From Abditibacterium sp. (GTDB lineage: Bacteria; Armatimonadota; Abditibacteriia; Abditibacteriales; Abditibacteriaceae), in assembly GCA_965199495.1 (NCBI GenBank), contig CBDASK010000003.1, forward strand, positions 2,592,001 through 2,656,000: DNA of 64,000 bases. The letters are read 5' to 3'. Made by a program: the position numbers and the translations under genes. How positions within the stretch are numbered: the stretch's first letter is position 1; each line of letters opens with the position of its first letter. Positions 283-64,000 of the stretch are shown here, in pieces. The notes under the pieces are model-generated. The model was not told where the DNA came from and made no database searches. It saw only the letters and a list, made by a program, of their open reading frames with translations.

Positions 283-1683
283 CTAAACCACGAATTCCGC
301 GTTCAATTCCTTGAACTCTTCGGCAAATCGCGAGTTGCGAAAGCGCCAGATATGCACGCGGCCATTGAAAACGTAGGTCGCGGGCGCCGATAAATCCGAG
401 CAGAAATCAGAGAGCATTTCTTCGGCGCGCGAGTTTTTCAAGGCGCCGTAACTCATGGCGCCGAAGTTCATTACAAGCGCGACCAGACACAGCAGTATCG
501 GCAGGAACGAACGGTTGGCGACCGAGAGAGCCACGCCGCCCATCGCTAAAATCAGGCTGCTGCCCATGCCCCAAAACGTGACTTTATCGCCCATTTTGGC
601 CGCGCGTTGATGCGTCGCACACGCTTCACATAGCGGCATCTGCCATTTGCCCGATGGCGAATTGAGTTGCCACTGCACCCCAGGCGCTTTTGCATAGCAA
701 CAGACGCAGCGCGCGGGCATTTCGGGTTGCTTTTTCGTCATCACGATGCGATACGAGCCGCGCGCGTGCGCTGCCAGTTGGGGCCGGTCGTTGGCGGGCG
801 GCGCGTCTGCGACAATAACCGGCGCACGAAACAATTCCAACAGTTCGGGCACGCTTTGCGGACGTTGAAGCGCATCAAGTTGCAAAGCGCTTTCGATGGC
901 ACCGCGCAATTGTGCATCGAGCTCGGGCTGCGATTGCGCAAGTGGTGTTAAATGGACACCCGCCGCACGGTCAACCGCCGACAGAGGCGCGGCTCCCGTC
1001 ACCAGATGATACAAAGTCGCGCCGAGGGCATAAACATCGGTCGCGGGCGAGAGCTTGGCGTGTTGCGCATATTGTTCGAGCGGCGCGTAACCCGGCGTGC
1101 CGATTTGCGCCGCAAGCGAAAGCGGTTGCGTGTTGAAATCGAGTTTTTCGCGCGGCACCAACAAATCGAAATCTACTAAAACCGGCGAGCCATCCACCAA
1201 AATCACGTTTTCGGGTTTCACATCCAAATGCAAAAAGCCCGCGCCGTGAATCGCGTTTAATGCGTCGGCCAACTTCTCGAAGCATTCGATGGCTCGCCGT
1301 GGCTGCATCGGCCCGTGCGCCTCGATCTCTTCCAGTAACGTCGGGCCTTCGAGTAAGGCCATCACCAAATAAGTCGTTTCGTTTTCGTCAAAAACGTCCA
1401 ACAACGCGACGATGGACGGATGAATTAACTCTTTCAAACGGTCGGCCTGATGGTGGAAAATGCGCCGAAACGCTTGCAGACAACCGCGCGCCGCGAAATC
1501 GGACGGCACGACGTTGCGTTCTTCGCGTTCGCAACCGGCGGGAAAGCATTCTTTGATGGCGACATCGCGTTCGTTGTGGAGGTCACGCGCGCGATAAGTC
1601 AGGCCAAAGCCGCCGCGCGCCAGAGGGCTTTCGATGCGGTAAGCGCCGTCACGGAGCGTAGTTTCGGGCGGAAGCGCGGACAT
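283..1683 (-). CDS. Hanks-type Ser/Thr protein kinase with C-terminal Cys-rich and two-TM region
   Basis: LARGGFGLTY, VAIKE, HLDVKPEN, GTPGYAPLEQ and DVYALG motifs; hydrophobic helices near the C-terminus. Confidence 0.9.
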   Translation of the reverse strand: MSALPPETTLRDGAYRIESPLARGGFGLTYRARDLHNERDVAIKECFPAGCEREERNVVPSDFAARGCLQAFRRIFHHQADRLKELIHPSIVALLDVFDENETTYLVMALLEGPTLLEEIEAHGPMQPRRAIECFEKLADALNAIHGAGFLHLDVKPENVILVDGSPVLVDFDLLVPREKLDFNTQPLSLAAQIGTPGYAPLEQYAQHAKLSPATDVYALGATLYHLVTGAAPLSAVDRAAGVHLTPLAQSQPELDAQLRGAIESALQLDALQRPQSVPELLELFRAPVIVADAPPANDRPQLAAHARGSYRIVMTKKQPEMPARCVCCYAKAPGVQWQLNSPSGKWQMPLCEACATHQRAAKMGDKVTFWGMGSSLILAMGGVALSVANRSFLPILLCLVALVMNFGAMSYGALKNSRAEEMLSDFCSDLSAPATYVFNGRVHIWRFRNSRFAEEFKELNAEFVV

Positions 1684-1747
1684 AAAACGGTGATTAAACG
1701 AGCGAGTTGAGCGATTCGTTGCGTTTGTTTCATAGCTTGAAAGCTAT

Positions 1748-1841
1748 GGCAGATGGCTGCGCCGGACGTGCTTCGCACTGAAATGAACACCAAGTGCGAA
1801 GCACGTTCGGCGCAGCCATCTGCCGTGGGCTTTAGCCCACG
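1748..1841. repeat. Intergenic long inverted repeat plus adjacent REP-like palindrome
   Basis: Arms 1748-1779 and 1793-1824 with one mismatch, followed by CGTGGGCTTTAGCCCACG. Confidence 0.8.
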
Positions 1842-1847
1842 AAATGC

Positions 1848-2603
1848 TCAAAACTTCAGATTCCACTCGTCGCGCCCATAACGTTCCCCAACCAATTCAT
1901 CCAACGCGCCCGCCGCAATCGTCTCCGCCGCTTCGCCCGCGCTCCACGCCTGACACAAAACGGCTTTAATATCAGCGCGCGAAACCGGCAAATTGCGAAT
2001 GAAATCGCGATGAGAACGGCGCGCGCGATAATCCGGTTCTTTCGACGGCGCGCGCAATAATCGCTGCACCAAATCTAAATCGAAATCCAATAAAATTGTG
2101 CCGTGAAACAAAAAATGGCGCGCCTTGCGCCGTTGCGCGTTGCCGGAAAACTTGAGGTTCCCGGTCGCCAAATCGGTATATCCGGCCACAGCCACGGCGA
2201 CGCCCAACAATTGTTCAAAGGCGGCGCGCTGCGTTTCCATGACCAATTTATTGGTCGCCTCGACATTCAAAGTTTCGCCCGGCGCAATCGAATGAATGAG
2301 CGCATAATTCAAACAACCCGGCCCCTGCAAAACGGTTCCGCCGCCCGAAACGCGGCGCAAAACCGGGACGTTTGCCGCCGCGCACGCGGACAAATTCGCC
2401 TCGATTTCGGCGCGGTTGGTGTAACCCAGCGCCACGAAATAGCAGGGCGATTCCCAGAAACGCAACGTCGCCGGGCGCGCGCCGTTTTCGGCTTGAATCA
2501 ACAGCCATTCGTCGGCGGCCAGATTACGCGCGGGCGTCGGGAAAGATTGATCGAGAAATTGCAAGGACACAGAGTTTAGAACGCCGTGGCTTGAGCTTTG
2601 CAT
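1848..2603 (-). CDS. Lipoate--protein ligase A / octanoyltransferase family protein
   Basis: NLAADE, RRVSGGGTV, KFSGNAQ and HGTIL motifs. Confidence 0.88.
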   Translation of the reverse strand: MQSSSHGVLNSVSLQFLDQSFPTPARNLAADEWLLIQAENGARPATLRFWESPCYFVALGYTNRAEIEANLSACAAANVPVLRRVSGGGTVLQGPGCLNYALIHSIAPGETLNVEATNKLVMETQRAAFEQLLGVAVAVAGYTDLATGNLKFSGNAQRRKARHFLFHGTILLDFDLDLVQRLLRAPSKEPDYRARRSHRDFIRNLPVSRADIKAVLCQAWSAGEAAETIAAGALDELVGERYGRDEWNLKF

Positions 2604-2617
2604 TTTGATTTGTTCTC

Positions 2618-3178
2618 ATGGCAAAACTTGATGGAAAACGCGTCGCGATTTTGGCGACCGATGGTTACGAACAATCCGAACTTACAGAGCCGCTGCAAGC
2701 CCTCAAAAACGCGGGCGCCCAAGTGCATATCGTTTCGCTCAAACCGGGCATTATTAAAGGTTGGAAAGACGAAAACTGGGGCGACAGCGTCAACGTGGAC
2801 TTCACGGTTGACGAGGCCAACGCCGCGCAATACGACGCTCTCGTGCTGCCCGGCGGCGTGATGAATCCCGACAAACTGCGCGTCAACGAGATGGCGGTTT
2901 CGTTTGTCACCGGCTTTTTCGAGCGCGGTTTGCCCGTCGGCGCGATTTGCCACGGCCCTTGGACTTTGATCAACGCGCAAGTCGTGGATGGCCGCACGCT
3001 GACGAGTTGGCCTTCGCTGCAACAAGATTTGGAAAACGCGGGCGCGACCTGGGTGGACGAAGAAGTCGTGTGCGACCAAGGTTTGGTGACCAGCCGCAAA
3101 CCCGCCGATTTGCCCGCGTTTTGCGACAAGCTCGTCGAAGAAATCGCCGAAGGTTTCCACGAAGGCCAAACGGCTTAA
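2618..3178 (+). CDS. PfpI/DJ-1 family protein (type 1 glutamine amidotransferase-like)
   Basis: ILATDGYEQSE, LPGG, AICHGPW and LVTSRKPADL motifs. Confidence 0.93.
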   Translation: MAKLDGKRVAILATDGYEQSELTEPLQALKNAGAQVHIVSLKPGIIKGWKDENWGDSVNVDFTVDEANAAQYDALVLPGGVMNPDKLRVNEMAVSFVTGFFERGLPVGAICHGPWTLINAQVVDGRTLTSWPSLQQDLENAGATWVDEEVVCDQGLVTSRKPADLPAFCDKLVEEIAEGFHEGQTA

Positions 3179-3194
3179 CTGGCGAAAATCATCC

Positions 3195-3235
3195 AAGACC
3201 TCGCAACAACTTTCCCGTTGTCGCGAGGTCTTTTT
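3195..3235 (+). terminator. Probable intrinsic terminator
   Basis: AAGACCTCGC...GCGAGGTC stem followed by TTTTT, downstream of the PfpI gene. Confidence 0.6.
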
Positions 3236-3239
3236 GCGT

Positions 3240-3932
3240 ATGAAAACCGTTTATTTTCTGTTTGGCGCCCTTGCATTTGCGCCGTGTTATGCCGCCGTGG
3301 CTGATGTTGCGGCGCCAGTCTCCGCCGAAACCGCGCAACGCGAACGCGATGCAACGGCGGCGGCGTTGGTGCGGTTAATTTCGGCCCGTTTGGACAATGA
3401 TTTCTGGCGCGTGGATTATCAGCCACAATTTGATTTGATCGAGGTGCAAAGCCGCAAACCAGACTGGGTTATGCCCGGAGTTCTTATCAATAGTCCGCCG
3501 CTTGATAGAATAAAACCAGAATTGATTAATTTCGGTTTTTCGCTGCGAGTCAAACCTTTGGTCTCGCCCGCAGACTACGCGCGTTTTCAATCTGGAAATG
3601 CCGCAATTCACATGCAGTTGGCACAGATGCAAAAGCAAATGAAAGACATTGGCCACAAATGCGATTCGTATTTGCCCAAGGACGCGGCGGAAAAAAAACG
3701 CGTTGATGCGTATAACAATGCCAAAGACAACATCCATTCTTTGCCACTTTTTTACTTCCGCGACCTGAGTCTGTCTCTCGTTTATTACGACGGGCAGCCA
3801 GTGTTTGAAAGCGCCAGATTGTTCGATCCCAACGTCCAACCTTACGAGCCACCTCCGTGGCAACTAAAGCAAAAAGCGGCGGCGCTTGCGGTGGCAGAAA
3901 TTGTGAGGCGCTACGAGACCCCAATAAAATGA
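3240..3932 (+). CDS. Hypothetical exported protein
   Basis: ORF with an N-terminal signal peptide (MKTVYFLFGALAFAPCYA); no recognisable domain. Confidence 0.65.
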   Translation: MKTVYFLFGALAFAPCYAAVADVAAPVSAETAQRERDATAAALVRLISARLDNDFWRVDYQPQFDLIEVQSRKPDWVMPGVLINSPPLDRIKPELINFGFSLRVKPLVSPADYARFQSGNAAIHMQLAQMQKQMKDIGHKCDSYLPKDAAEKKRVDAYNNAKDNIHSLPLFYFRDLSLSLVYYDGQPVFESARLFDPNVQPYEPPPWQLKQKAAALAVAEIVRRYETPIK

Positions 3933-3951
3933 ATCGGGCAAACTCGCAGGG

Positions 3952-4530
3952 ATGCAAACGCAAACCAATTCCCCAATTCAATCCGAGCGTCAGAAAATGC
4001 TGGCGGGCGAACTTTATCTCGCCTCCGACCCCGAACTGACGAAAATGCGCGAGCGCGCCCGCCAAATCACGCGCGCATACAACTCGACCATCGAAACCGA
4101 ACGCGATTTGCGGCGCACCTTGCTCAATCGCTTGCTGGGCCAAATGCCGCCCAAACTCGAAATCGAGCCGCCGTTTCGCTGCGACTACGGCACCAACATT
4201 TATATCGGTCAGAATTTCTACGCCAACTTCGGCGTCGTTATGCTCGATTGCGCCGCCATTCACATCGGTGAAAACGTGATGCTCGCGCCCAACGTGCAGC
4301 TTTACACGGCTTATCATCCGCTCGACGTGGCTGTGCGCATTAGCGGCCTCGAAGCGGCGTCGCCCATCACCATCGGCGACAACGTGTGGATTGGCGGTGG
4401 CTCCATCGTGTTGCCGGGCGTGACGATTGGCGAGAATTCGGTTATCGGCGCGGGTAGCGTCGTGACCAAAGATATTCCGGCCAATGTGGTGGCTGTCGGC
4501 AATCCATGCCGCGTGATTCGCGAACTTTGA
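3952..4530 (+). CDS. maa: Maltose/galactoside O-acetyltransferase
   Basis: KMLAGELY, IEPPFRCDYG, hexapeptide repeats and GNPCRVIR. Confidence 0.9.
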   Translation: MQTQTNSPIQSERQKMLAGELYLASDPELTKMRERARQITRAYNSTIETERDLRRTLLNRLLGQMPPKLEIEPPFRCDYGTNIYIGQNFYANFGVVMLDCAAIHIGENVMLAPNVQLYTAYHPLDVAVRISGLEAASPITIGDNVWIGGGSIVLPGVTIGENSVIGAGSVVTKDIPANVVAVGNPCRVIREL

Positions 4531-4752
4531 AATTGCGATTTTATCGTGGGGACAAACGGACTGCCGTTTGTCCCACCAAATTCAAAGGGGAAACTAAGGC
4601 GAAAGTTCGCTGTGATTCTGGCTCTAAGTGGCTGATAAAACTCTCAGAGTTTTGCTTTTTGGGGCGTCATCGGCTATCCTACAACTGAAAAATCGAACTT
4701 AATCGGCGATTCTTCGTTTTGTTTTACCCCGCTTCGGCGAGGAATCCTTTTC

Positions 4753-6474
4753 ATGCAAATTAGTTTTAATCGCTCTAAAAGTTCGCTCGTTCTCGCTGCT
4801 GTGGGAGTTTTTTGCTGCGCCTCTCTGGCGAGCGCGGCGCCCGGTTCGCTGGGTGGCCCCGAAGCCAATCTGGCCGATGGCGGAATCAATCGCAAAATTG
4901 AGACCAAAACCACAACGCCCGCGCCGACTTACCAATCTAACGCGCAGACGCGGCCCTCGACCAACGTGCCGCCCTCCGGCCAACCGTTCGTGCCGGGCGT
5001 TGATTATTCCAGCGCGACAGACAAAGGTGGCACCCTCGCGCAGCCACCGGCAGCGCTTGGCCCGGCTCCGTTCGATCTGGGCAAAATCAAGCGCATGCAA
5101 ATCGGTAACTATTCGATTCGCGAACAACCGCTACGCGTCGGCAACCTCGATGTGTTGGCGCCCTTGGTCGAAGAGTTGCCGATGGTCGGCGCGACGGTGA
5201 CCAGCGCCGATCCGCGCAATATGCCCGGCAATCTCAACACGCCGACCAATGCGCAATATTTTCAGATCAACCTGCCGCGCGGCGAGCCAATCGTGATGTC
5301 GGCGGGCAGCGCCGTGGCTTATGTCGGCGGCAACGAAGTCACCCTGCGCGCCGCGCCTCTGGTGATTGACCGCCAAATCTGGCTGCCGGTTTTCTCGATT
5401 GCGCCTTTGATGGGCGCCGCCACGCGTTTGAATCCACAGGGCACGCTTTATCTTTCGCCCACGATTCAGAGTGTCGAATTGTTCCCGGTCAACGATACCA
5501 TCGCCGTCACCATCAAGGCTTCGATGCCGGTGCCGCGCAATGCCTATAAAATTACGCAGATAGACGGCGCCAACCCCAAAACTCTGATCGAGTTCGACGG
5601 TTTTTCAATGGGTTTTGACGCCGGAAATTCGACGATGGAACGTTTGGTCGCGCCCGGTCGCAATCAGGTCAAAGGCGTGCGCGCCGCGCAGGGCGAATTT
5701 TTCCCCGACAAAACGCGCGTGGTTATTGACTACAAATCGTCGCTCGATGCGACGGTGCAAAAGGTCAGCGACCCCACAATTTTCGCTCTCGTTCTGACGC
5801 CGCCCAGCAAAGCGCCGCTCGTATTGCCACCCGATCAATTCGATCCCGCTCCGCCCATTGCCAACCCGGCGGCGCCCTACGATCCCGTCACCACTATAAA
5901 CCCGATTGGCAAACCTTTGCAGGGTTTGACAATTGTGATTGACGCCGGACACGGCGGCCACGATACCGGCGCGCCCGGCCTTAAATCGCTCGAAAAACAA
6001 GATACGCTCGCCATCGCCAAAAATTTGCAACGCATTCTGGTCGAGCGCGGCGCCAACGCGTTGCTCTCGCGCAGCAATGATACTTACATTACGCTGCAAG
6101 GCCGCGTTGATTTCGCGCAAAGCCGCAACGCTGATTTGTTCATTTCGATTCACATGAACTCGTCGCCCAGTTCGGCTTCCAACGGCACCGAGACCTTCTT
6201 TTACACTTCGCAATCGCAGTTTTTGGCGCGCGAAATCCACAAAGAGTTCATCGGAGCCACGGGCCGCAAAAGTCGTGGCGTTTCGCAGGCGCGCTTCTAC
6301 GTGATTCGCAAAACCACGATGCCTTCGGTTTTGCTCGAATGCGCGTTTATTTCCAACCCGACCGAAGAAAACCTCGCGCTCACTACGGCGTGGCGCGAAC
6401 GCGTCGCGCAGGGCGTAACGCGCGGCGTGATAAATTACGTCGAACATTATGGCGCCACCGGACGCCGAGGCTAA
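4753..6474 (+). CDS. N-acetylmuramoyl-L-alanine amidase (Amidase_3) with N-terminal stalk/AMIN-like region
   Basis: Signal peptide; IDAGHGGHD, FISIHMN and SVLLECAFISN motifs. Confidence 0.92.
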   Translation: MQISFNRSKSSLVLAAVGVFCCASLASAAPGSLGGPEANLADGGINRKIETKTTTPAPTYQSNAQTRPSTNVPPSGQPFVPGVDYSSATDKGGTLAQPPAALGPAPFDLGKIKRMQIGNYSIREQPLRVGNLDVLAPLVEELPMVGATVTSADPRNMPGNLNTPTNAQYFQINLPRGEPIVMSAGSAVAYVGGNEVTLRAAPLVIDRQIWLPVFSIAPLMGAATRLNPQGTLYLSPTIQSVELFPVNDTIAVTIKASMPVPRNAYKITQIDGANPKTLIEFDGFSMGFDAGNSTMERLVAPGRNQVKGVRAAQGEFFPDKTRVVIDYKSSLDATVQKVSDPTIFALVLTPPSKAPLVLPPDQFDPAPPIANPAAPYDPVTTINPIGKPLQGLTIVIDAGHGGHDTGAPGLKSLEKQDTLAIAKNLQRILVERGANALLSRSNDTYITLQGRVDFAQSRNADLFISIHMNSSPSSASNGTETFFYTSQSQFLAREIHKEFIGATGRKSRGVSQARFYVIRKTTMPSVLLECAFISNPTEENLALTTAWRERVAQGVTRGVINYVEHYGATGRRG

Positions 6475-6561
6475 ACCCCGTAACCACGAACCAAAGGCTC
6501 AAGAAGAACGGCGCCCGCCTTTTTTCTTGAGCCTTTATCGTTTATCCTTCTCTTAATCCCC

Positions 6562-7206
6562 GTGAAAAATATTCCTCTTTCCCGCATTCCGCTCGCGCTG
6601 GGCGCTTTATGTTGCGCTCTGGCGCTCGCCTCGTGTTCGTCTAACACTTCGACCAGCACTTCCACCGAAAATCTCGTGGATGCCAATTCCATCACCGACA
6701 ATGCAGCCACCGACAATGCAGCCACCGCCAACGCGACCGACACCAACGCAGCGCCGACGGTGAAATTTTCGTCGCTCGAAACGATTTACGTGCCGGGCAA
6801 AGACGACCTGTTGCACGAAACCAAAGTCTCGCGCATGGCGATGGATTCGCAGCTCAAAAGCGGCGACCCCGCCGCACCCGGTTTGCAGGAAATTATCGAG
6901 AAATCGCCGCTTTATTTCCCCAAAGGCGCCAAGATTAACAGCACAACGCAAACCGACAAAGGCATGAACGTTGACCTCAACAAAGACTTCGCTGATGACG
7001 AATTTTGGCGCAGCAAGGGCGAAAAAACCACCGAATTGGCGGTTTATGCCCTCGTCAATAGCGCCGCCAAAACCACGGGCGCGCAGGGCACCAGCGAGCC
7101 GCAACCGGTCACTTTTACCATCGAGAAAAAGCCCGCCGAAACTTTGGGCGAGTTCGCCGTTGATGGCGCCATCGAGCCGCAAATGCGTTTGGTTGCCCCT
7201 AAATAA
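6562..7206 (+). CDS. GerMN-domain lipoprotein
   Basis: Lipobox LASC; VDLNKDF...ELAVYALVNS; lies between amidase and murI; 15-nt tandem repeats (TDNAA) near 6693-6740. Confidence 0.75.
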   Translation: MKNIPLSRIPLALGALCCALALASCSSNTSTSTSTENLVDANSITDNAATDNAATANATDTNAAPTVKFSSLETIYVPGKDDLLHETKVSRMAMDSQLKSGDPAAPGLQEIIEKSPLYFPKGAKINSTTQTDKGMNVDLNKDFADDEFWRSKGEKTTELAVYALVNSAAKTTGAQGTSEPQPVTFTIEKKPAETLGEFAVDGAIEPQMRLVAPK

Positions 7207-8004
7207 ATGGCGCCCGATTTCACTCCCTTGACAATTGGCATTCGCGATTCGGGCGTCGGCGGCCTGACCGTGGCGCGCCGCGTGTTGGAATGTTTGCCCG
7301 GTGCGAATTTAGTTTATTTCGCCGATACCGCGCACGTTCCCTACGGCGACAAAACGCCCGCGCAGGTGCGCCACTACGCGCTTTCAATCTCGCGTTTTTT
7401 GATTGCTCAGGGCGCGCAAATGCTGGTTTTTGCCTGTAACACGACATCGGCTTTGGCTTTGGATACGGCCCGTGGCTGCTTCGACGTGCCGATCTTTGGC
7501 GTGATTCGTCCCGGCGCGCGCGTCGCTGCAAATTTATCGCAAGGTAAAGTCGGCGTTTTGGCGACGGCGGCGACGGTGCAAACCCGCGTTTACACGCGCG
7601 TTTTGCAAGAATACCGCGCCGATTTGCAGGTCGAAGAGATCGGCTGCCCGGCGTTTGTGCCGCTCGTAGAAGCGCACCAAACCGAAAGTATCGAGGCTCT
7701 CGAAGCGTGCAAACATTATCTGGCGCCGCTAAAGCGTTGGGGAGCCGATACCGTCGTTTTGGGCTGCACGCATTATCCGCTTTTGTTGCCCGCGTTGCAA
7801 CGCGTCGCGCCCGAAATTCGCTTCGTTGACCCGGCGCAGGCCGTCGCGCAGGAAGTCGCCGCCAGCGTGAAAAATGGGCCGAACGGCGCGGGCACCCATC
7901 GCTTTTTCGTATCGGGCGAAAAAGCGGGCGTCGGGCCGTGGATCGAAAGTTTGTTGAAAATTGGAAATCCTCTTTTGGAAGACGGGCCGATTTTCGATTT
8001 GTAA
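7207..8004 (+). CDS. murI: Glutamate racemase
   Basis: DSGVGGLTV, PYG, ACNT and LGCTHYP motifs. Confidence 0.96.
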   Translation: MAPDFTPLTIGIRDSGVGGLTVARRVLECLPGANLVYFADTAHVPYGDKTPAQVRHYALSISRFLIAQGAQMLVFACNTTSALALDTARGCFDVPIFGVIRPGARVAANLSQGKVGVLATAATVQTRVYTRVLQEYRADLQVEEIGCPAFVPLVEAHQTESIEALEACKHYLAPLKRWGADTVVLGCTHYPLLLPALQRVAPEIRFVDPAQAVAQEVAASVKNGPNGAGTHRFFVSGEKAGVGPWIESLLKIGNPLLEDGPIFDL

Positions 8005-8008
8005 AACG

Positions 8009-8141
8009 TGCTTTGCGTCCCGTAGAGACACCGACCGGGTGTCCCTTGGGCGGACGTCTAAAAAGTAGAAATTGCTTTCACGAGAGAGCGAATTTTACGT
8101 TTTAGACGCGATAAATCGCCGTCTCTACGGGACGCAAAGCA
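8009..8141. repeat. GTAG-REP doublet (REPIN-like), family A, asymmetric copy
   Basis: GTAGAGAC...GTCTCTAC arms with outer TGCTTTGCGTCCC inverted flanks; left arm is the long form, right arm the short form. Confidence 0.85.
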
Positions 8142-8150
8142 AATACTCTA

Positions 8151-9149: not shown

Positions 9150-9154
9150 ATTTA

Positions 9155-55515: not shown

Positions 55516-55519
55516 CTTC

Positions 55520-55615
55520 GTAGAGACACCGACTTGTCGTGTCTAAAAACGTCGGAGTTGTTTTATGCTCAAGCAATTTCTACCTTCATTAGACACGACA
55601 AGTCGGTGTCTCTAC
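55520..55615. repeat. GTAG-REP doublet (REPIN-like), family A, short-arm copy
   Basis: GTAGAGACACCGACTTGTCGTGTCTAA and its reverse complement. Confidence 0.88.
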
Positions 55616-55625
55616 ATATTTCCCT

Positions 55626-56381
55626 ATGACACTTCAAGGCCCACAAAACATTGTCGCCACCGATTTATTCAAGAAATACGGCGAGCGCACCGTTGTCGAA
55701 AAATTCTCGACGACCGTGGCGCGCGGCGAAATCGTCGGTTTGCTGGGGCCAAATGGCGCGGGCAAAACCACGTCGTTCTATATGATTATGGGTTTGGTCA
55801 AGCCCGATAGCGGGAGGGTGAAACTGGACGAAACCGACATCACGCGCTGGCCGATGCACCAACGCGCGCGCGCGGGCGTCGGCTATCTGGCGCAAGATGC
55901 GTCGGTATTTCGCAAACTCACCGTCGAAGAAAATCTGCTGGCGATTTTGCAACTAATGCCGCTTTCCAAAGCCGAACGTCGCGAACGCTGCGAAAAATTG
56001 TTGGAAGAATTTGAACTGACGGCGCGCCGTCACGCGGTCGGCGCGGCTCTGTCGGGCGGCGAACGGCGGCGGACGGAAATCGCGCGCGCGTTGGCGGCTG
56101 ACCCGCATTTTATTTTGTTGGACGAACCGTTTTCCGGCATTGACCCGCGTCAGGTTCAGGAAATTCAGAGCATCGTGAAGAGTTTGAAAGAGCGCGGCAT
56201 CGGCATTTTGATTACCGATCACGATGTCGAAGATACTTTGGCCGTGATTGATCGGGGCATGATTTTGCATAACGGGCGCATCGAATTTGAGGGCACGCCC
56301 GCCGAACTGCTCGCCAACCCGCGCGCGCGCGATATCTACTTTGGAGACCGCATTGGCCGTCGCGACCAAAACCAAAACTAA
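55626..56381 (+). CDS. lptB: LPS export ABC transporter ATP-binding protein
   Basis: GPNGAGKTTSFYM, LSGGERRR, LLDEPFSGIDP and ITDH motifs. Confidence 0.93.
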   Translation: MTLQGPQNIVATDLFKKYGERTVVEKFSTTVARGEIVGLLGPNGAGKTTSFYMIMGLVKPDSGRVKLDETDITRWPMHQRARAGVGYLAQDASVFRKLTVEENLLAILQLMPLSKAERRERCEKLLEEFELTARRHAVGAALSGGERRRTEIARALAADPHFILLDEPFSGIDPRQVQEIQSIVKSLKERGIGILITDHDVEDTLAVIDRGMILHNGRIEFEGTPAELLANPRARDIYFGDRIGRRDQNQN

Positions 56382-56382
56382 G

Positions 56383-57606
56383 TTGTCCCAACCAACAGCC
56401 ACGCCGCCCGAACAGAAATTTCGGCGTTCGCGCGCCAAGTTGTTGCCGCTCGCCGATGGCTTCGTCGTCGGCTCGATTGCGGGCGCGACTTTGCGTTCCA
56501 TCGGCTGGTTCGCCGGACTGTTTCTGGCGTTCGCGTTCGTGCAGGCCGCGCGCACCGTCGCAGTTTCGGACGTGCCGATGATCATCGCGCTGCAAAGTCT
56601 GGCGCTGCAACTGCCGCGCATCGTTTTGTTCACCATTCCAGCGTCGCTACTTTATGGCACCGTCGCGACGTTTAGCGAAATGTCGAGCCGGGGCGAAGTG
56701 ACCGCTTTAATGTGCGGAGGCATGAGTTTGCGCCGTATGTTGCGCTGGCCGCTCGTTTTCGCGGTCGGGCTGACGTTTTTGGCGTTCTGGCTGCAAGAAG
56801 TCGTCGTGCCCGCCTTTGAACTGCGCAAGAGCAATTTGACCGCGCAGGTCGCCGTGGCTGTTTTGCAAAACCAGAAGTTCAAGCCGTTAGTGGATTATCG
56901 CGACGACGGTTCGCTCGAACGCATCGTGCAGGCCGAAAAATTCGATATTAAAAATAAAACCGTCATCAATCCGGTGATTCAATTGTTTCGGCCCGATGGC
57001 ACCATCGAAACCGAAATTAAAGCGCAGAGCGGCGCGTGGGATCCGGTCGCAAAAGCGTGGAGCTTCACCGATGGCAGCATGCGCACTCCGCGCGAGAAAG
57101 GTTCGACGGCGACGGTGCTGAACGAATATGGCAAGTTCACCGTGCCGACCGATCAGATGCCCGCGCCCGATGGGTTTGACCAAGGCGAAAAATCGGCGCG
57201 CGACCAACTGGCCAAACAAAACTACGAAATGGTTTCGTGGCGCCAATTGTCGGCGTTTCGCGCCGAAGAGGTCGCGCGTCTGCCCGCCGTGGCTGGTAGC
57301 GAACAGAAGCAATTGAAGAAAGAGATTCGCCGCGAAACCTACGGCATCCACGATAAATTCGCGACGCCTCTGGTTGTCATCGCGATGTTGATTATCGGCG
57401 CGCCTTTGGGCGTGCGTCCGCAACGCACGGCGTCGGCGGGTTTGGCGATGGGCATTTCGCTCGTCGTGATTTTGGGTTATTACTTGTTGTGGACGTTTTG
57501 CACGCAGTGGGGCAAAGGCGGCGGTCAATGGCCAATTTTCGCGGCGTATTTGCCCGTCGGCGTGTTCGCGATGATCGGCGTAATTTTATTGGTTCGCAAA
57601 CGTTAA
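56383..57606 (+). CDS. LptF/LptG family permease
   Basis: Six-TM layout; GEVTALMCGGMS and IGAPLG; probable TTG start after the lptB stop. Confidence 0.85.
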   Translation: MSQPTATPPEQKFRRSRAKLLPLADGFVVGSIAGATLRSIGWFAGLFLAFAFVQAARTVAVSDVPMIIALQSLALQLPRIVLFTIPASLLYGTVATFSEMSSRGEVTALMCGGMSLRRMLRWPLVFAVGLTFLAFWLQEVVVPAFELRKSNLTAQVAVAVLQNQKFKPLVDYRDDGSLERIVQAEKFDIKNKTVINPVIQLFRPDGTIETEIKAQSGAWDPVAKAWSFTDGSMRTPREKGSTATVLNEYGKFTVPTDQMPAPDGFDQGEKSARDQLAKQNYEMVSWRQLSAFRAEEVARLPAVAGSEQKQLKKEIRRETYGIHDKFATPLVVIAMLIIGAPLGVRPQRTASAGLAMGISLVVILGYYLLWTFCTQWGKGGGQWPIFAAYLPVGVFAMIGVILLVRKR

Positions 57607-57683
57607 TTATCCCTGCGCGCCCGACTTATTGGCAAACGTCGCGCGTTTTGGCGCGTCTTTAATCTGGCTTTTACGCCCCTCTC

Positions 57684-59378
57684 ATGCTCACAATTTTTGT
57701 GCTTTTCGTCGGCTTAACTTTGGCCACGGCGGTCATCGCCTACTGGTCGGATAATCTGGGCAAAAAACTGGGCAAAAAACGCGTTTCGCTGTGGGGCATG
57801 AGGCCGCGCACGACGGCGACGTTTCTCACTATCGCGTCGAGCTGGCTGATTATGCTGTTCACATTGGGCGTGATGTTAGGTATTTTCCCGCCGCTACGTC
57901 ACGCGCTGTTGCGCTTCGATGAAGTCAAAGCGCAGGAACAGGGATTGCGCAAATCAACGACGAAGCTGAGCAGACAACTGATCGAATTGCAATCGCAATC
58001 ACAATTGCTCCGAGATCAGGTTTCTTCGGTAGCGGGCACGTTGGCGAATGTGCGAGGTCAGTTATCGCAATCGCGCGCGGCGGCAACACAGGCGCGCCAA
58101 GCCCGCGACGAAGCGCAGAAAGCCGCCGACGAAGCGCGCAAAAACGCGACTGCGGCGCAAAACCGTCAGCGAAAAGCGGTTGAGCGTGAACAAGCGGCGC
58201 GCGATAATTTGGGTAAAGTCATCGGTCAACTCAGTGCCACCAAACAGCAACGCGAAACGGCGCAGCAGCAACTACGCGCGGCGCAAACCGAATTAGAGAA
58301 AGCCAACGCCGACGTTCAAAGTGCCAATGCCCGCGTGAAAATCGCAACTGGCAAAGTGGCGAAAGCCCAGAATGATTTAGCGACGGCTCAGCGAAGTGAG
58401 AAAATCTCTAAATCCAATGCAGAGCGAGCCGATGCGCGTGCAATTGATGCAAATCAGAAGCGAATCGAGGCCGATGCAGGCGCTCTTGTATCTTTCGGAG
58501 AGAGAATTAAAGCCCAAGCCGAAGTCATTCAGGCAAAGAAAAAAGTAGACGAATTGGAAGAGCAAAGCAAAAAACTCATAGAAGACAATAAAACGCTGTT
58601 GACGGAAAATGACAACTTGATCGATGCTCTGCTTTTAAGCGATGTGCGCGTGCCCGTTGGAACCGTTTTGGCCGCCCAGAATTTTGCGCAGGGCACTTCG
58701 TTTTATCAGGCGAAAGACGATTTGAATGCGCTTTTTGCGCGCGCCGACGAAATCGTGAGCGGCTACAAAGACAATGATAAAAATGTTCCGCCGTTGTTGC
58801 CGGGCGCGAAATTAACGCTATCGCCTCGTTTGGTGCCCGCGCCCGACCTTGATGAGAGCGAGACGCAACAGTTCGTTTCCGTCGAGGGCGAAGAAATTTA
58901 TAACGGTCTGGCAGAAGCGATTTCGCGCAGCCAAAACCCGCTTTCGGTGCGGCTCGTCTCCGAGCGCAATCATTTGCTGGGCGACAGCACATTGTCGGTT
59001 CGCTTTGTTGTCGTGCCCATTCGCTCGGCGTTGCCCGCCAATGAATTGTTGGTGAGCGCGCGCATTGACGGCGCGGCGAACGACGCCAGAATATTCAAAA
59101 ATTTGACGGATTTGGCCGATGCCGCGCGCGATATCGCGACACAACAAGGCGTGGCGCCGCCTTTGTGGCGCGACTCGCGCAACTTCTACGCGCCCGGCTC
59201 TAATGAACAAGTCTTCGATACTTTGCGCGAAATCAAAGCGGTTAACGGCCCGGCGCGCGTGCGCATCATCACCGCGCGCCCCATCTCGACTGCCGATTTA
59301 TTGAGTGTTCGTTTTGAAGTCGAACCGTTGAGTTCGGTGACAACACAAGCCACGGCGCGCATGGCGCCTCGCAAATGA
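57684..59378 (+). CDS. DUF3084 coiled-coil membrane protein
   Basis: DNLGKKLGKKRVSLWGMRPRTTA signature and a long coiled coil. Confidence 0.85.
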   Translation: MLTIFVLFVGLTLATAVIAYWSDNLGKKLGKKRVSLWGMRPRTTATFLTIASSWLIMLFTLGVMLGIFPPLRHALLRFDEVKAQEQGLRKSTTKLSRQLIELQSQSQLLRDQVSSVAGTLANVRGQLSQSRAAATQARQARDEAQKAADEARKNATAAQNRQRKAVEREQAARDNLGKVIGQLSATKQQRETAQQQLRAAQTELEKANADVQSANARVKIATGKVAKAQNDLATAQRSEKISKSNAERADARAIDANQKRIEADAGALVSFGERIKAQAEVIQAKKKVDELEEQSKKLIEDNKTLLTENDNLIDALLLSDVRVPVGTVLAAQNFAQGTSFYQAKDDLNALFARADEIVSGYKDNDKNVPPLLPGAKLTLSPRLVPAPDLDESETQQFVSVEGEEIYNGLAEAISRSQNPLSVRLVSERNHLLGDSTLSVRFVVVPIRSALPANELLVSARIDGAANDARIFKNLTDLADAARDIATQQGVAPPLWRDSRNFYAPGSNEQVFDTLREIKAVNGPARVRIITARPISTADLLSVRFEVEPLSSVTTQATARMAPRK

Positions 59379-59767
59379 ACGTTTTAGGCATCGATCCGGG
59401 ACGCCGCAAGACCGGCGTGGCTGCACTCAACGCGCGGGGCGAAATTCTGTGGCGCGAAATCATCGCGCCCAATACGCTCCAAGCGCGTTTGCCCGATTTA
59501 ATCAATCAATGGCAAATCGAACGCATCGCACTGGGCGATTCGACGGCTTCGGACGACGCGCGCGCCCAAATCGAACGCGCGATTGTTGATTTGATAATTG
59601 AACTTCGGGTTGTAGACGAAACCGGTTCGACATTGGAAGCGCGCGCGCTTTACTGGGCCGATAATCCGCGCGCGGGTTGGCGCAAGTGGGTGCCGCTTTC
59701 GTTGCAAGAGCCGCCAACACCGATTGACGATTATGCCGCCGCCATCGTCGCGCGGCGCGGATTATGA
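59375..59767 (+). CDS. YqgF/RNase-H-like resolvase family protein
   Basis: LGIDPGRRKTG, VDETGSTLEAR and IDDYAA; ATGA overlap with the DUF3084 gene. Confidence 0.85.
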   Translation: MNVLGIDPGRRKTGVAALNARGEILWREIIAPNTLQARLPDLINQWQIERIALGDSTASDDARAQIERAIVDLIIELRVVDETGSTLEARALYWADNPRAGWRKWVPLSLQEPPTPIDDYAAAIVARRGL

Positions 59768-59858
59768 AACAGCAAAACCAGAATTGGGCCGTTTCGTAAT
59801 TTTCCCGAAACACACTGCGCCCACTCAGTCAATTAAAATAATAGAGGCTCGATTTTCT

Positions 59859-61322
59859 ATGAACATTCTCGCTTCTACTTCTTCCGCGCTCGATTTTTCG
59901 ACGCCCTGTCTGCTCGTTCCGATTTGGAGCGATGCGCCGCTTTCCGGTTTCGCCGCCGACCTCAACGAATTGCTCGACGGTCTGATTTCCGACATCGTCG
60001 AAAACGATGGTTTCAAAGCCAAAGTCGGCGACACGCGCACGCTTTATACATCCGGCAAATCCGCCGCGCGCGTGGTTTTGTTTGGTTTGGGCAAACAAGA
60101 CAAGTTCAGCGACGAGCATTTGCGTAAAGCTCTCAGCAAAGCCGCGCGAGTGGCGCGCGGCCTCAAGAAAACGCAAATCGCCGTCGCTTTGGGCGACTTG
60201 AATGCGCAAGCCGCGACCGAGGCGCTGGTTTTGGGATTGGCGCGTTTTTCCGAGTTTAAAGAAGACAAAGACGCCACCGAAATCGAGACCGTGACTTTGC
60301 TGACCGATGATGCAGCCACGGCGGGCGCGGCCATCGAGCGCGGGCAGATTATCGCCGCCGCGACGCTGAAATGTCGGCATTTGGTGAATTTGCCGTCGAA
60401 TAAAAAATCGCCCGAATTTTTGGCGCAAACCGCGCGCGAAATCGGCGAATCGGGCGCCGTCAAAGTCACCGTTTGGGACGAAGATAAAATTCAAGAAGAA
60501 AAGATGGGCGCGCTTTACGCCGTCGGCATGGGCAGCGATAATCCGTCGCGTTTCATCGTGATGGAATACGCGCCAGAGGGAACCGAAAACGAGGCGCCGA
60601 TTTGTCTGGTGGGCAAGGGCATCACTTTCGATTCGGGCGGTTATTCGATTAAATCGGCAGCCGGAATGGAAGATATGAAAGGCGATATGGGCGGCGCGGG
60701 CATCGTTATCGCCTCGATGTCGGCCCTCGAAAAATTGGGCGTCAAAAAGCGCGTTTTTGGTATTGTCGCGTCGGCGGAAAATATGGTTTCGGGCGGCGCA
60801 CAACGCCCCGGCGACATCATCACCGCGCGCGACGGCACGACTATCGAAGTTTTGAACACCGATGCCGAAGGTCGTTTGGTTTTGGCCGATGCCTTGGTGT
60901 GGGCGAGCGAACAGAAGCCCGCCGCGATTGTGGATTTTGCCACGCTGACCGGCGCAATCGTCGTTGCGCTGGGCCAAGAAGGCGCCGGTTTGTTTTCCAA
61001 CGATGACGATTTGAGCGCGCAATTGACGCAAAGCGGCCTCACTTCGGGCGAACTGATCTGGCGTTTGCCGCTGTGGGAAGGTTTGGACGATTCGATGAAA
61101 GGTAAAATCTCCGATTTGAGAAACATCAGCGGCGACCGTTACGCGGGCAGCATCACGGCGGCGATTTTCCTGCGCCATTTCGTGGGCGAAGATATTCCGT
61201 GGGCGCACCTCGATGTGGCTGCTGTTGACCAGGTGAAATCGGAGAAACATCTGACGACCTTCGGCGCCACCGGTTTTGGCGTGCGTTTGGTGTTGGATTA
61301 TTTGTCGAAAGCTAATGCTTAA
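59859..61322 (+). CDS. pepA: Leucyl aminopeptidase (M17)
   Basis: VGKGITFDSGG, MKGDMGG, NTDAEGRL and ATLTG motifs. Confidence 0.95.
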   Translation: MNILASTSSALDFSTPCLLVPIWSDAPLSGFAADLNELLDGLISDIVENDGFKAKVGDTRTLYTSGKSAARVVLFGLGKQDKFSDEHLRKALSKAARVARGLKKTQIAVALGDLNAQAATEALVLGLARFSEFKEDKDATEIETVTLLTDDAATAGAAIERGQIIAAATLKCRHLVNLPSNKKSPEFLAQTAREIGESGAVKVTVWDEDKIQEEKMGALYAVGMGSDNPSRFIVMEYAPEGTENEAPICLVGKGITFDSGGYSIKSAAGMEDMKGDMGGAGIVIASMSALEKLGVKKRVFGIVASAENMVSGGAQRPGDIITARDGTTIEVLNTDAEGRLVLADALVWASEQKPAAIVDFATLTGAIVVALGQEGAGLFSNDDDLSAQLTQSGLTSGELIWRLPLWEGLDDSMKGKISDLRNISGDRYAGSITAAIFLRHFVGEDIPWAHLDVAAVDQVKSEKHLTTFGATGFGVRLVLDYLSKANA

Positions 61323-61504: not shown

Positions 61505-61535
61505 GCGACAATCTCCTTCTAAAACCCCAAAAATT

Positions 61536-62405
61536 ATGCGCTCTTACTGGGATGAAGACCTCGCGATTCTATCCGCCGAAAACGTTTCGTTTTCGTTGGA
61601 AACCGCCGGACTCGGCTCGCGTCTGGCGGCGCTGTCCATTGATACCGCCATTCAACTTTTAGTCGCGTTTTTGGGCACGATAACGGTTCTCGGTCTGGAA
61701 AGTTATCTGAGTCTGTCGAGCTATGTGCCGCCCTTTTTGGAATCGGTCGGCGATGCGGTTTTGATCATATTGGGATTTTTGCTGTTTTTCGGCTACTACT
61801 TTTTCTTCGAGTGGTTGTGGGAAGGCCAGACTCCCGGCAAACGTTGGTTCGGTCTGCGCGTGACGATGACCGATGGTTTGCCGCTTTCGCTGTGGCCCGC
61901 GATGATTCGTAATATCGTGCGATTAGTAGATTTCCTGCCGGTGGGCTACGGTTTTGGCGCCGTCGTTTGTCTGGCCAGCGAACTCAACCAGCGCGGCGGC
62001 GACTTGGCGGCGGGCACGGTTGTTGTCGTCGAGGGCAAGCGCGAGAAAGCACGCAAAAAAGTCACCATGCGCGAAGCCGTTGACAGCTTTTTGCAAGCCG
62101 CCACAACCGTGCCGGGGATGGAGCAGGCCACGCCGTATCAGGACGAAGAGTTGCAAATCGAAGCCGCGCGCACCGTTGACCCCGAAGCGATTGCCCTCGC
62201 GCAAACGCTCAACCGCGAAGATTACGAACTGGCCCGCGACTTTTTGGTGCGCCGCGAAAATTTACCGGTCGTCGCGCGCCAACGTCTGGCGAAATCGCTG
62301 GCCGCGCGTTTGGCGACCAAGATGAAAGTCGAAACGCCGACAATTGAAGTCGAAACGTTCATTGCCGATGTCGTCGCCACGCTGACGCGGGCGTATGCGG
62401 GCTGA
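61536..62405 (+). CDS. RDD family membrane protein
   Basis: AGLGSRLAALSID, GQTPGKR and QRGGDLAAGTVV motifs. Confidence 0.88.
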   Translation: MRSYWDEDLAILSAENVSFSLETAGLGSRLAALSIDTAIQLLVAFLGTITVLGLESYLSLSSYVPPFLESVGDAVLIILGFLLFFGYYFFFEWLWEGQTPGKRWFGLRVTMTDGLPLSLWPAMIRNIVRLVDFLPVGYGFGAVVCLASELNQRGGDLAAGTVVVVEGKREKARKKVTMREAVDSFLQAATTVPGMEQATPYQDEELQIEAARTVDPEAIALAQTLNREDYELARDFLVRRENLPVVARQRLAKSLAARLATKMKVETPTIEVETFIADVVATLTRAYAG

Positions 62406-62460
62406 GTTTTGATTTTCAGAGCGGGCGAATTGCCGCCACATTTAATTCCCCAAACCGTTC

Positions 62461-64000
62461 ATGAACCCGCTTTTTGCCCGCGAACTCCGCGCGCGCTGGC
62501 GCGACCGCCGCGCGTGGTGGCTGTCGCTCGCGCTCGCCATTGGGCTGGCGCTTTTGGCGAACACGATGTTTGGGAGCGGCGTTTCGCAGCAAGACCCGCA
62601 AATCATGGTGCGCACGCGCAACGGTTCGTATGTGATGCGCACCGAGCAGATCACGCCGACGGCCAAAGCCGCGCGCGCCGGGCGCGAACTTTTCATGGCG
62701 CTGGCGCTGGGCAACGCGGTCGCCGGGCTTTTCGTCGCGCCGATATTGGCCGCGACGCCCATCGCGCGCGAACGCGAACGCGGATTGCTCGAAAGTCTGC
62801 AACTCTCGCACATGAGGCCGCTTTCGCAAATCGCGGCGCGCACCGGGGCGGCGTTGGTGTTTTTGCTGGTTTTGCAACTCGCCATCACGCCGATTTACGC
62901 GATTATTCTGTGGCTGGGCGGCGTCTCGCCGGGCGAATTTGGTCTGGCCGCGCTCATTCTGGTGTGCATTGCGATTGGCGGCGTGGCCGTGGGAACTTTC
63001 ATTTCGGCGCGCTCGCACCGGCCCTCGACCGCGCTGTTTTCGGCGTTGGGCTTCGTCGTTTTGTGGACGCTTTCGCTGTGGCCCGCCGCCTATGGCGCGT
63101 TCGGCACCACATGGGGTTGGTGGTCTTATCCGGCATCCGCGTTGATGTGGTCGCATCCGTTGCCGCTTATTTGGAGTGTGACCGATGCTTCGGGCCAAAT
63201 TTCCACATATTTGCCCACGCCTTTCGGCTGGGAAGACGGGACATTCGTCGCCGCGCTATGCGGGTGTTGGCTGCTGGCGAGTTTAATTTTGCTGGCGCTT
63301 GCGACGCGATTGATTCATAAGCCACTGGCTCCGGCTTCGTGGGAAAGCACGGCGAGCGCACCAGTGCAGTGGTGGCGCCGCTCGATTGAACGGCGCGACG
63401 CGGCGGCGCGGCAACGCGAACTTCAACGCAAAAACAAAAGCGCGCGGCGCGTCGAAAACGCGTTGGTGGCCGATGTGCCGATTGACAAGTGGATTCGGTT
63501 CGCCAACCCGTTATTGGAGCGCGAGGTGCGCTCGCGTTTTCGGTTGCGCCGCGCCGGTTGGGCGTTGATGCTGGGGCGTTTTCTATTGTTTGGCGCGGGC
63601 GTTTTCAGTTGGATGGCCTCGGTTTACCAGCTCACCGATCCGACGGGGCGCAAAGACGTGGATTCGTGGTTGATTTACGTTCTGTGGGGTTTGGGCGCGC
63701 TCGCCGTGGCTGCGTTGTCGTCGGCGAGTCTGGCGCGCGAACGCGAAAGCGGAACATGGGAATCGCTCAAGTTATCCTTGCTGCGTCCGCCGGAAATCGT
63801 GCGCGCCAAATGGATGGCGCCCCTGTGGGCCTTCGCGATTTACTCGGCGCCTTTGTGGTTGCTGCTGCCGTTTGGTATGAAATGGGGCGGGCGAGCGGGC
63901 ATGGAGCCGCTCACCTTGTTGCTCAGTGTCGCCATCGTCTGGCTGTCGTATGGCACAATTTCGATGATCGGTTTGCTGATTTCGTGGCGCGCGCGTCAGC
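62461..64000 (+). CDS. ABC-2-type transporter permease with duplicated permease domain (3' truncated)
   Basis: Read directly from sequence: MNPLFARELRARWR..., IARERERGLLE, then FANPLLEREVRSR and LARERESGTWE. Frame appears open to the window end. Confidence 0.8.
   Translation, partial: MNPLFARELRARWRDRRAWWLSLALAIGLALLANTMFGSGVSQQDPQIMVRTRNGSYVMRTEQITPTAKAARAGRELFMALALGNAVAGLFVAPILAATPIARERERGLLESLQLSHMRPLSQIAARTGAALVFLLVLQLAITPIYAIILWLGGVSPGEFGLAALILVCIAIGGVAVGTFISARSHRPSTALFSALGFVVLWTLSLWPAAYGAFGTTWGWWSYPASALMWSHPLPLIWSVTDASGQISTYLPTPFGWEDGTFVAALCGCWLLASLILLALATRLIHKPLAPASWESTASAPVQWWRRSIERRDAAARQRELQRKNKSARRVENALVADVPIDKWIRFANPLLEREVRSRFRLRRAGWALMLGRFLLFGAGVFSWMASVYQLTDPTGRKDVDSWLIYVLWGLGALAVAALSSASLARERESGTWESLKLSLLRPPEIVRAKWMAPLWAFAIYSAPLWLLLPFGMKWGGRAGMEPLTLLLSVAIVWLSYGTISMIGLLISWRARQ

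Follow-up and report, generated by a model that had tools for sequence, protein, structure and literature searches.

The word in the window

The window, that is, the whole stretch of DNA analysed here, comprises 64,000 nucleotides of Abditibacterium sp. (contig CBDASK010000003.1, positions 2,592,001 to 2,656,000), and this work concerns an octamer, CGTGGCTG (CAGCCACG on the opposite strand; hereafter the word), that is repeated throughout it. The genome of the window is referred to as G000 and consists of a 4.72-Mb chromosome, C3, which holds the window, and two small contigs, C1 and C2; related genomes bear G numbers and individual loci L numbers. The word occurs exactly 49 times in the window, 30 times as CGTGGCTG and 19 times as CAGCCACG. 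The first-pass annotation, which was made from the sequence of the window, had counted about 49 copies with this split, and all of its example positions were correct. It had estimated 3-4 copies from base composition; 100 dinucleotide shuffles of the window gave a mean of 2.38 copies and a maximum of 7, and none reached 49. Genes were called with a purpose-built hexamer model (3,973 genes in G000), and 46 of the 49 copies lie within them. The copies and their arrangement are as follows.

1298..63712, + strand: 30 exact copies of CGTGGCTG, starting at 1298, 3296, 4326, 7471, 9035, 11314, 13322, 15783, 17467, 20133, 20975, 24668, 24989, 25673, 27152, 28260, 31423, 32020, 39112, 39295, 42367, 45041, 48306, 49526, 52089, 55221, 56853, 57288, 59416 and 63705
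2189..60320, - strand: 19 exact copies, read as CAGCCACG on the + strand, starting at 2189, 10945, 14217, 15774, 16554, 17899, 25951, 29048, 36020, 36894, 41422, 44529, 45257, 45977, 47063, 50017, 53954, 56396 and 60313
15774..15790: intragenic inverted pair CAGCCACG-C-CGTGGCTG, 9 bp apart, with a common CGNCG head
17899..36901, - strand: three copies outside called genes, at 17899, 36020 and 36894
1218..1390, + strand: example of a phased flank, round the copy at 1298; the phasing is an average over all copies, not demonstrated for this copy itself

The closest two - strand copies in the window are 720 bp apart. The inverted pair may be a single site that serves both strands, by analogy with the palindromic words of family relatives described below. 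The open frame at 16378-17859 stops just short of the copy at 17899. The copy at 36894 may be coding because an open frame at 36653-38095 encloses it.

Excess in the genome

G000 has 3,091 copies of the word, of which 3,083 are on C3 (1,525 on the + strand and 1,558 on the - strand, 0.65 per kb), 2 on C1 and 6 on C2. Markov models of order 3, 4 and 5 predicted 237, 436 and 1,428 copies genome-wide, and CGTGGCTG is the top octamer over the order-3 and order-4 models. The longer full form is CG[C/G/A]CGTGGCTG(C)(T), in which the GTGGCT core is obligatory. Over-representation inside genes was confirmed on the chromosome, where 2,830 of the 3,083 copies (92%) are coding and the word is enriched in all six reading frames. 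Its density is 0.71 per kb in genes and 0.40, 0.37 and 0.35 per kb in convergent, tandem and divergent gaps, respectively; a role as terminator pairs in G000 was rejected, since convergent gaps are not enriched. The first-pass annotation had raised the question of whether shuffling that preserves codons or dipeptides would remove the enrichment, and it did not. Against the 2,830 coding copies, synonymous shuffling within genes (8 runs) gave 234-278, about 254; shuffling within dipeptide context (4 runs) gave 283-297, about 290; shuffling within tripeptide context (4 runs) gave 689-748, about 720; and a codon-pair model (4 runs) gave 634-683, about 670. A 4- to 11-fold excess remains after all four, which excludes a codon or peptide artefact. 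The word is a real DNA-level signature of the genome that is not explained by codon or peptide use. The tripeptides that it encodes, VAA, AVA and AAT, rank 2, 3 and 4 of 7,994, and therefore the word has bent the proteome too.

The word is rare in recently acquired or foreign DNA. At chromosomal density 16 copies would be expected on C1 and 42 on C2, where 2 and 6 were found, and an island at G000:C3:1119000-1256000 has 34 copies against 92 expected. This island adjoins an intact comM, with three extra comM 3' fragments, and this suggests that tandem integrations at comM lie behind it.

The density of the word is flat from origin to terminus. With the origin set at dnaA, 1,584 of the 3,083 copies (51.4%, p=0.13) are on the leading strand, which is the outcome that the first-pass annotation had linked to uptake and HIP words. 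On the same chromosome, 294 of 380 copies of the consensus of the FtsK-orienting polar sequences (KOPS) are leading. Thus signals polarised to the terminus, such as KOPS and architecture-imparting sequences (AIMS), as well as other replichore-linked signals (primase and restart sites), are excluded by the lack of skew; PriA and DnaA are normal. On C3 the GC skew is very weak and genes show no strand bias (49.9% of gene length leading), although the dnaA/KOPS replichores are clear. Around the word no base-composition footprint was found past about 100 bp.

Strand-specific spacing

The most informative properties of the word, which were absent from the first-pass annotation, are a spacing that concerns copies on the same strand only and a locking to helical phase. 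At distances of 40-750 bp there are 265 same-strand pairs against 680 expected in G000, and 666 opposite-strand pairs against 715. The ratio for same-strand pairs is 0.1-0.5 over this range and returns to normal by about 1.5 kb; that for opposite-strand pairs is about 1 throughout, but with an excess at 12-15 bp (44 vs 4). The hazard of meeting the next same-strand copy is 0.08 per kb at first and levels off at 0.46 per kb at a distance of 2 kb. Four control words showed clustering and no repulsion. The exclusion is graded by the strength of the word, with ratios of 0.21 for two full forms, 0.49 for a full and a bare form and 1.16 for two bare forms, and variants with a core mismatch are not excluded near the word. 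Among 13 one-mismatch variants with enough copies, those excluded near a same-strand word were GGTGGCTG, CGTGGCT[A/C/T] and, weakly, CGTGGCCG; the remaining eight showed no such exclusion. Where genes are opposed, it is still the copies on one and the same DNA strand that are avoided (19 vs 47, as against 787 vs 738 at baseline; p=4e-4), and the exclusion tracks the DNA strand, not the direction of the gene. It was replicated in the related genome G011, with 4 same-strand pairs against 15.9 expected and 17 opposite-strand pairs against 16.7.

A toy birth-death model with a strand-specific benefit and 1.2-kb tracts gave same-strand bins of 0.17, 0.42, 0.78 and 0.95 with opposite-strand bins of about 1, whereas a strand-blind model gave repulsion in both pair classes and did not reproduce the observed curve. 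Within roughly 1-2 kb, each strand requires a copy of its own, for which one on the opposite strand is no substitute. The spacing points to a polar action on one strand.

Helical phase of the flanks

The A/T content at synonymous positions oscillates round the word, with an amplitude of 0.079 upstream (z 28) and 0.045 downstream, and the oscillation fades out by about 250 bp. Its period is 11.06 bp (11.01-11.12) upstream and 11.10 bp (11.03-11.17) downstream. Counted from the first base of the word, the average A/T-rich patches lie near -19, -31, -42, -53, -64 and -75 and at +26, +37, +48 and +59. The median amplitude for 80 control words of the same strong/weak pattern was 0.015, core mismatches had no signal, and a control word bearing AA reached 0.019 against 0.052, about one third. 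Phase and amplitude are similar in sense and antisense copies, in leading and lagging copies and in the six frames, and the same phase was found in G011 (z 3.8) and in the non-repeat copies of a further relative, G004 (z 4.4). Because both exclusion and phasing disregard gene direction, a transcription-linked element is ruled out. Neighbouring words have no mutual helical phase. The A/T rhythm of the whole chromosome is equally strong far away from words, and words may therefore only be aligned to it. The locking of the word to this rhythm of about 11.1 bp is tighter on its 5' side, and the rhythm need not stem from the word. It is plausible that a reader engages bent double-stranded DNA from one face, and more so on the 5' side.

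Controls with uptake signal sequences and Chi

The uptake signal sequence (USS) of Pasteurellaceae type served as a control. From 80 metagenome loci (L140-L219), all chosen for one strong USS, 40 non-redundant USS-rich loci were kept (605 kb, 465 USS), 11 duplicates and loci that were short or USS-poor being dropped. Same-strand USS pairs at 40-200 bp numbered 3 against 28.5 expected and opposite-strand pairs 22 against 29.3; at 40-750 bp the numbers were 89 against 121 and 105 against 124. The USS is flanked by two strong A/T tracts 11 bp apart and further weak ones, and phased A/T tracts of the USS are described in PMC3458573. Our early idea that same-strand exclusion speaks against an uptake sequence was overturned by this control. 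For the Chi sites of E. coli K-12, 10 same-strand pairs were found against 13.3 expected at 40-750 bp and 6 against 3.0 at 40-200 bp, in a small sample of the first 100 + strand sites. The word is more like the USS than Chi, but with a longer range, since the USS shows same-strand avoidance and phased A/T and the Chi sample shows no exclusion.

Conservation and spread in the phylum

Among 41 genomes the octamer is enriched in only G000, G004 (3,503 copies) and G011 (2,676). An 11-mer counted in 401 genomes of the phylum occurs 2,113, 1,776 and 720 times in G000, G004 and G011, respectively, and at most 134 times in the others. These three genomes form a single clade (support 100) within Abditibacterium in a quick RpoB tree, which was midpoint-rooted and from which G005 was left out.

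When 72 genes were aligned to those of G011, 41 of 60 word sites were kept. Four-fold sites within the word were identical in 109 of 116 cases, against 72.6% overall (p=1e-8), and GCT codons were kept in 21 of 22 cases inside the word and in 111 of 232 outside it. The conservation in relatives that the first-pass annotation had wished to see examined is thus found at the silent sites of the word, and the word is kept by selection at the DNA level. The residues that it encodes are less conserved than average (52% vs 71%). None of 121 aligned word sites was present in seven congeners without the word, and no gradient of divergence round words was found in G011. Of 220 sites aligned to G004, 57 were kept. 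A same-strand copy within 1 kb accompanied 13 of the 57 kept and 92 of the 163 lost sites (p=1e-5), and an opposite-strand copy 25 and 87 (p=0.22); this contrast is in part the G004 exclusion stated anew and does not tell which event came first. No publication on the word, the genus or over-represented motifs of the lineage was found in the literature searched, the coverage of which left out most subscription papers.

Words of other family members

The words of relatives were read from samples of 4.5-166 kb. Seven other genomes of the family have their own AGTAC-core words, which are mostly palindromic. The palindromes TCGAGTACTCGA, GAGTACTC and GCAAGTACTTGC, which resemble HIP1 (highly iterated palindrome 1) of cyanobacteria, occur about once per kb in G020 (L050-L053), G022, G024, G250, G014 (L054-L057) and G018. 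RAGTACTY palindromes number 2,695-4,371 in six of the 31 genomes counted, the remaining 25 having 0-396, and their spacing in the samples is even (coefficient of variation 0.56-0.78). The word of G014 has five phased A/T patches per side. That of G017, AGTACGGTCGA-NN-TCGA, is asymmetric; in 60 kb it forms 21 inverted pairs 14 bp apart, other copies are single, and it stands alone about as often as in pairs. The samples from 16 of the 27 family genomes, one of them covering just 18 kb, showed no dispersed word. Candidates in G013, G016 and G228 were rejected, being tandem or clustered rather than dispersed. A family that has asymmetric, half-paired and palindromic words as well as wordless relatives is a natural series in which the reader may be found by comparative genomics.

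Repetitive extragenic palindromic (REP) elements are GTAG-headed hairpins that lie outside genes beside the gene of a REP-associated tyrosine transposase (RAYT). In G004 the core of the word lies within a REP-like repeat, with 638 GTAG-headed copies genome-wide; 239 of 400 sites sampled are GTAG-headed, and only 46 of these 239 are in aligned genes, the repeats being in inverted pairs. Only 2 copies in G000 have the GTAG head. G001 contains an unrelated 11-mer, CCACAAAAAAT, that occurs 2,398 times in its 3.2-Mb assembly and 34 times in the closely related G008; in G001 most copies are at gene edges and in inverted pairs (e.g. L126, L031). This is a very recent burst, mostly REP-like.

In G000 the tetramer GTAC, the core of words in two other genera, is almost absent, at 463 copies or 0.11 of expectation, and many relatives have next to none. 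CTAG is almost absent from G000 too, with 94 copies, 0.04 of expectation. A tandem array of a 19-bp unit in 27 copies, which includes GTACGTAC, lies at G010 L080:11458-11960.

Candidate readers and recombination machinery

G000 has a competence set composed of ComEC, ComM and a type IV pilus operon, with ComEA and DprA found by motif only. Four minor pilins of no known family are present in all pilus operons examined, and the pilus operon was rejected as a word-specific factor because it has no word-specific gene. Between G000 and G011, both carriers of the word, a 618-aa pilin shares only 48% identity, a sign of very fast divergence. The G000 operon (L256:5120-18463) encodes four large minor pilins and two pilin-like proteins of 1,300 aa; all of these match no Pfam family beyond the N-terminal motif, and the large pilin-like protein is doubled in G000, G004, G022 and G228.

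An AddA-like gene is present in all 10 congeners without the word and in none of the three carriers. In G000, G004 and G011 the AddA query found only a helicase of PcrA size, and AddB had no match in G000. An AddAB-like pair, scoring below curated cut-offs, is present in all 10 congeners that lack CGTGGCTG and probably in G015; it was not found in the 10 genomes with CGTGGCTG or AGTAC words, several of whose assemblies are incomplete. The resulting contrast (0 of 10 carriers vs 11 of 17 others, p=0.001) predates the finding of the G001 word and was computed on kin that are not independent. G001 carries AddAB together with its own REP-like word, which weakens the anti-correlation, and neither AddAB nor a word was detected in six genomes. 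RecC was found in none of five word-carrier genomes searched.

A 1,421-aa helicase-nuclease resembling Dna2 and Bad is encoded at L025:7365-11630 (- strand). It has the cysteine pattern of an iron-staple nuclease and an SF1B helicase, with DNA2 as best solved match, and occurs in only five of 27 family genomes (G000, G004, G011, G016 and G017); within the genus it is present in exactly the three word carriers. Its large middle part belongs to no clear family, and the protein is apparently split in the G011 assembly.

Methylases and repair proteins were recognised by characteristic motifs. Motifs of MutS and MutL are present. No beta-class or C5 methylase tracks the word (Type I and IIG enzymes were listed without comparison), and none of the G000 C5 enzymes is strongly matched by one from G004 or G011. 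Three other methylases were rejected as readers. That beside mutS (in G000, G004, G011 and G020, not in G009) is paired with an MjaI-family nuclease, and, given the specificity of MjaI, it would explain the avoidance of CTAG instead. A DpnA-like methylase is genus-wide, in 10 of 13 genomes with or without the word, and an alpha-class methylase by aspS is present in G009 as well. Y1 transposases are not tied to the word, and the intact ones flanked by REPs carry other repeats.

Possible functions of the word

The first-pass annotation had proposed an uptake-, HIP- or Chi-like signature. The uptake-like kind is the best fit; canonical Chi and KOPS are not supported, and strict HIP1 does not suit a non-palindromic word that no beta-class or C5 methylase follows. 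We regard the word as real, selected and lineage-specific, and strand-specific spacing and helical phasing as new handles on it. The explanation that we prefer, tentatively, is a polar self tag of the kind of the DNA uptake sequence (DUS) and the USS, acting on one strand in the recombination of incoming own-species DNA. A protein would read the GTGGCT core in bent double-stranded DNA and commit the word-bearing strand over some 1.2 kb, whether to entry, to protection or to RecA loading. Strands of a donor that bear the word would recombine more often, and biased conversion would multiply the words until both strands are covered; mutation would remove copies that have a same-strand neighbour. 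By analogy, the word is a candidate uptake sequence and seems to work like one. In favour of this reading are the graded same-strand exclusion with its replication in G011, the fit of the strand-specific toy model, the scarcity of the word in foreign DNA, the lineage-specific words of the family and the competence genes of G000.

The closest known system is the USS of Pasteurellaceae, likewise an asymmetric word, about one per 1.5 kb, mostly intragenic and without replichore skew. Raised encoded tripeptides, poorly conserved residues and phased A/T flanks are shared with it according to PMC2817400 and PMC3458573, and same-strand avoidance was measured here. The word differs from the USS in its unrelated sequence and phylum, in exclusion to about 1.5 kb rather than 0.2-0.5 kb, in a flank of at least six weak A/T patches rather than two strong tracts, and in that G000 has no terminator pairs and that no receptor was found. 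The DUS dialects of Neisseriaceae (PMC3630211) are likewise lineage-specific words across a family, and G004 has intergenic inverted pairs. Unlike them, the words of Abditibacteriaceae fall into unrelated groups (CGTGGCTG and the AGTAC core) with no single shared core, and the DUS receptor ComP was not found in a search without a positive control.

Several observations speak against a self tag of this kind. USS uptake is reported as orientation-blind (PMC1939737), and therefore a strand-specific step is inferred rather than known; the same-strand exclusion found in the USS suggests such a step in classical uptake sequences too. Exclusion reaches about four times as far as in the USS. The word in G000 is rarer between genes and not enriched in convergent gaps, unlike the DUS and USS in their use as terminators (bioRxiv 2025.10.24.684340). 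A period of 11.06-11.10 bp would suit intracellular supercoiled DNA better than relaxed DNA outside the cell, a comparison that rests on PMC4132750. DNA-maintenance genes have no excess of words (35 vs 33 expected in 21 genes of G000 picked by motif). Competence genes are family-wide and therefore no marker of word carriers, G017 and G020, which carry words, have a split comM, and no extra pilin tracks the word among the pilus operons compared. The ComP profile PF16732 matched none of five genomes, and no control genome matched it either.

A doubtful but attractive alternative is that the word belongs to a third class of self word, a polar, rotationally positioned landing site needed on each strand every 1-2 kb and read intracellularly by a putative recombination factor in lineages without RecBCD or AddAB. 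If so, the palindromes of the family, and perhaps HIP1, would be two overlapped polar sites, G017 with its single and paired word would be an intermediate, and the asymmetric word would expose a logic that the symmetry of HIP1 hides. HIP1 and the alternative palindromes of cyanobacteria are likewise hyper-abundant, even, intragenic and selected, six family genomes have their RAGTACTY palindromes, and HIP1 raises transformation at a homology-requiring step (bioRxiv 2024.09.10.611283). The word of G000 differs in being non-palindromic, so that its polarity is measurable, and in the lack of a methylase that tracks it. It offers three measurable handles, namely a single strand, a 1-2 kb reach and a constant face of the helix. 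In the literature examined, uptake words are established in just two families, and the function of HIP1 is still under question some 30 years on. Testing pair orientation costs little and can be extended to other hyper-abundant words.

It is also possible, though unlikely, that the word is a substitute for Chi in two-ended break repair after the loss of AddAB, recognised by an end-processing motor, possibly the Dna2/Bad-like helicase-nuclease. Such a motor would have to meet a word in the right orientation no further than about one processive run from either side of a random break, and therefore both strands would be covered equally in both replichores. Like the word, Chi is a polar non-palindromic octamer, and reading per strand would give such spacing. 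The distribution of AddA, the lack of an AddB match in G000 and of RecC in the carriers searched, the nesting of the carriers among AddAB carriers in the quick RpoB tree and the presence of the Dna2-like protein in exactly the three carriers of the genus are in line with this. A single run of Geobacillus Bad unwinds 900-1,181 bp (PMC7430649), close to the 1.2 kb of the fit, and RecC occurs in HIP1-poor marine picocyanobacteria (PMC5101192, PMC13756078). However, the word has no leading-strand bias, and the Chi sample of E. coli shows no such strong same-strand exclusion. Helical phasing would be unexpected for a signal read in single-stranded DNA. The AddAB correlation amounts to two or three independent events; the six genomes with neither AddAB nor a word detected do not fit it, nor does G001, with AddAB and 2,398 copies of its own word, though these are mostly REP-like. 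The Dna2-like gene was not found in six of the seven AGTAC-word genomes, yet it is present in G016, where no word was seen. The effect of HIP1 in PCC 7002 survives deletion of addAB (bioRxiv 2024.09.10.611283).

That the word is a directional docking site on the supercoiled chromosome, at which a nucleoid protein, topoisomerase loader or translocase re-engages every 1-2 kb per direction, is improbable. The phase-locking, stronger upstream and alike in all strand, replichore and frame classes, and the even density from origin to terminus would suit it, and a structural role has been proposed for HIP1 (PMC5861425). On the other hand, the A/T rhythm is as strong far from words, neighbouring words are out of mutual phase, 16 of 27 family genomes manage without a detected word and words turn over quickly between relatives, as G004 shows.

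We consider it quite improbable that the word is a strand mark for mismatch repair, in which one-strand methylation or a nick at an asymmetric site would label the new strand. A link to a methylase is known for HIP1, and a role in repair has been suggested for it. Each strand would need sites within an excision tract and palindromic words would serve both strands, so that cover per strand, a 1-2 kb range and the lack of replichore skew are predicted, and MutS and MutL motifs are present. Against this, no beta-class or C5 methylase tracks the word: that beside mutS has its nuclease partner, the DpnA-like one occurs irrespective of the word and the C5 enzymes of G000 lack strong matches in G004 and G011. 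A graded 13-bp word with phased flanks would also be unlike a methylase site.

A selfish REP-like repeat or a codon or mutational by-product is very improbable and largely refuted for G000: despite the GTAG-headed inverted repeats of G004, mostly outside aligned genes, and the similar burst of an unrelated repeat in G001, the copies of G000 and G011 are embedded in codons without the GTAG head, silent positions are conserved, control words cluster instead of repelling, the excess survives the codon shuffles, and RAYT-like loci, unlike those of REPs and their paired form REPIN, are flanked by other repeats with no transposase tied to the word.

Other features of the window

Contigs of three public runs were compared with the window; 40 of about 2,190 differences were visible, too few to gauge conservation of the word, and the shares in the runs were too small to point to a habitat. 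Plasmid sequences searched with DnaK and viral ones searched with GltX yielded nothing of use. The window also contains REP-like inverted pairs between genes, five headed by GTAGAGAC and one by GTAGGGGC, at the following positions.

8022-8128: REP-like pair
13389-13510: REP-like pair
16261-16381: REP-like pair
44336-44428: REP-like pair
55520-55615: REP-like pair
27737-27826: REP-like pair

The GTAGAGAC and GTAGGGGC heads flank genes of RAYT-like Y1 transposases in G000 and G004.

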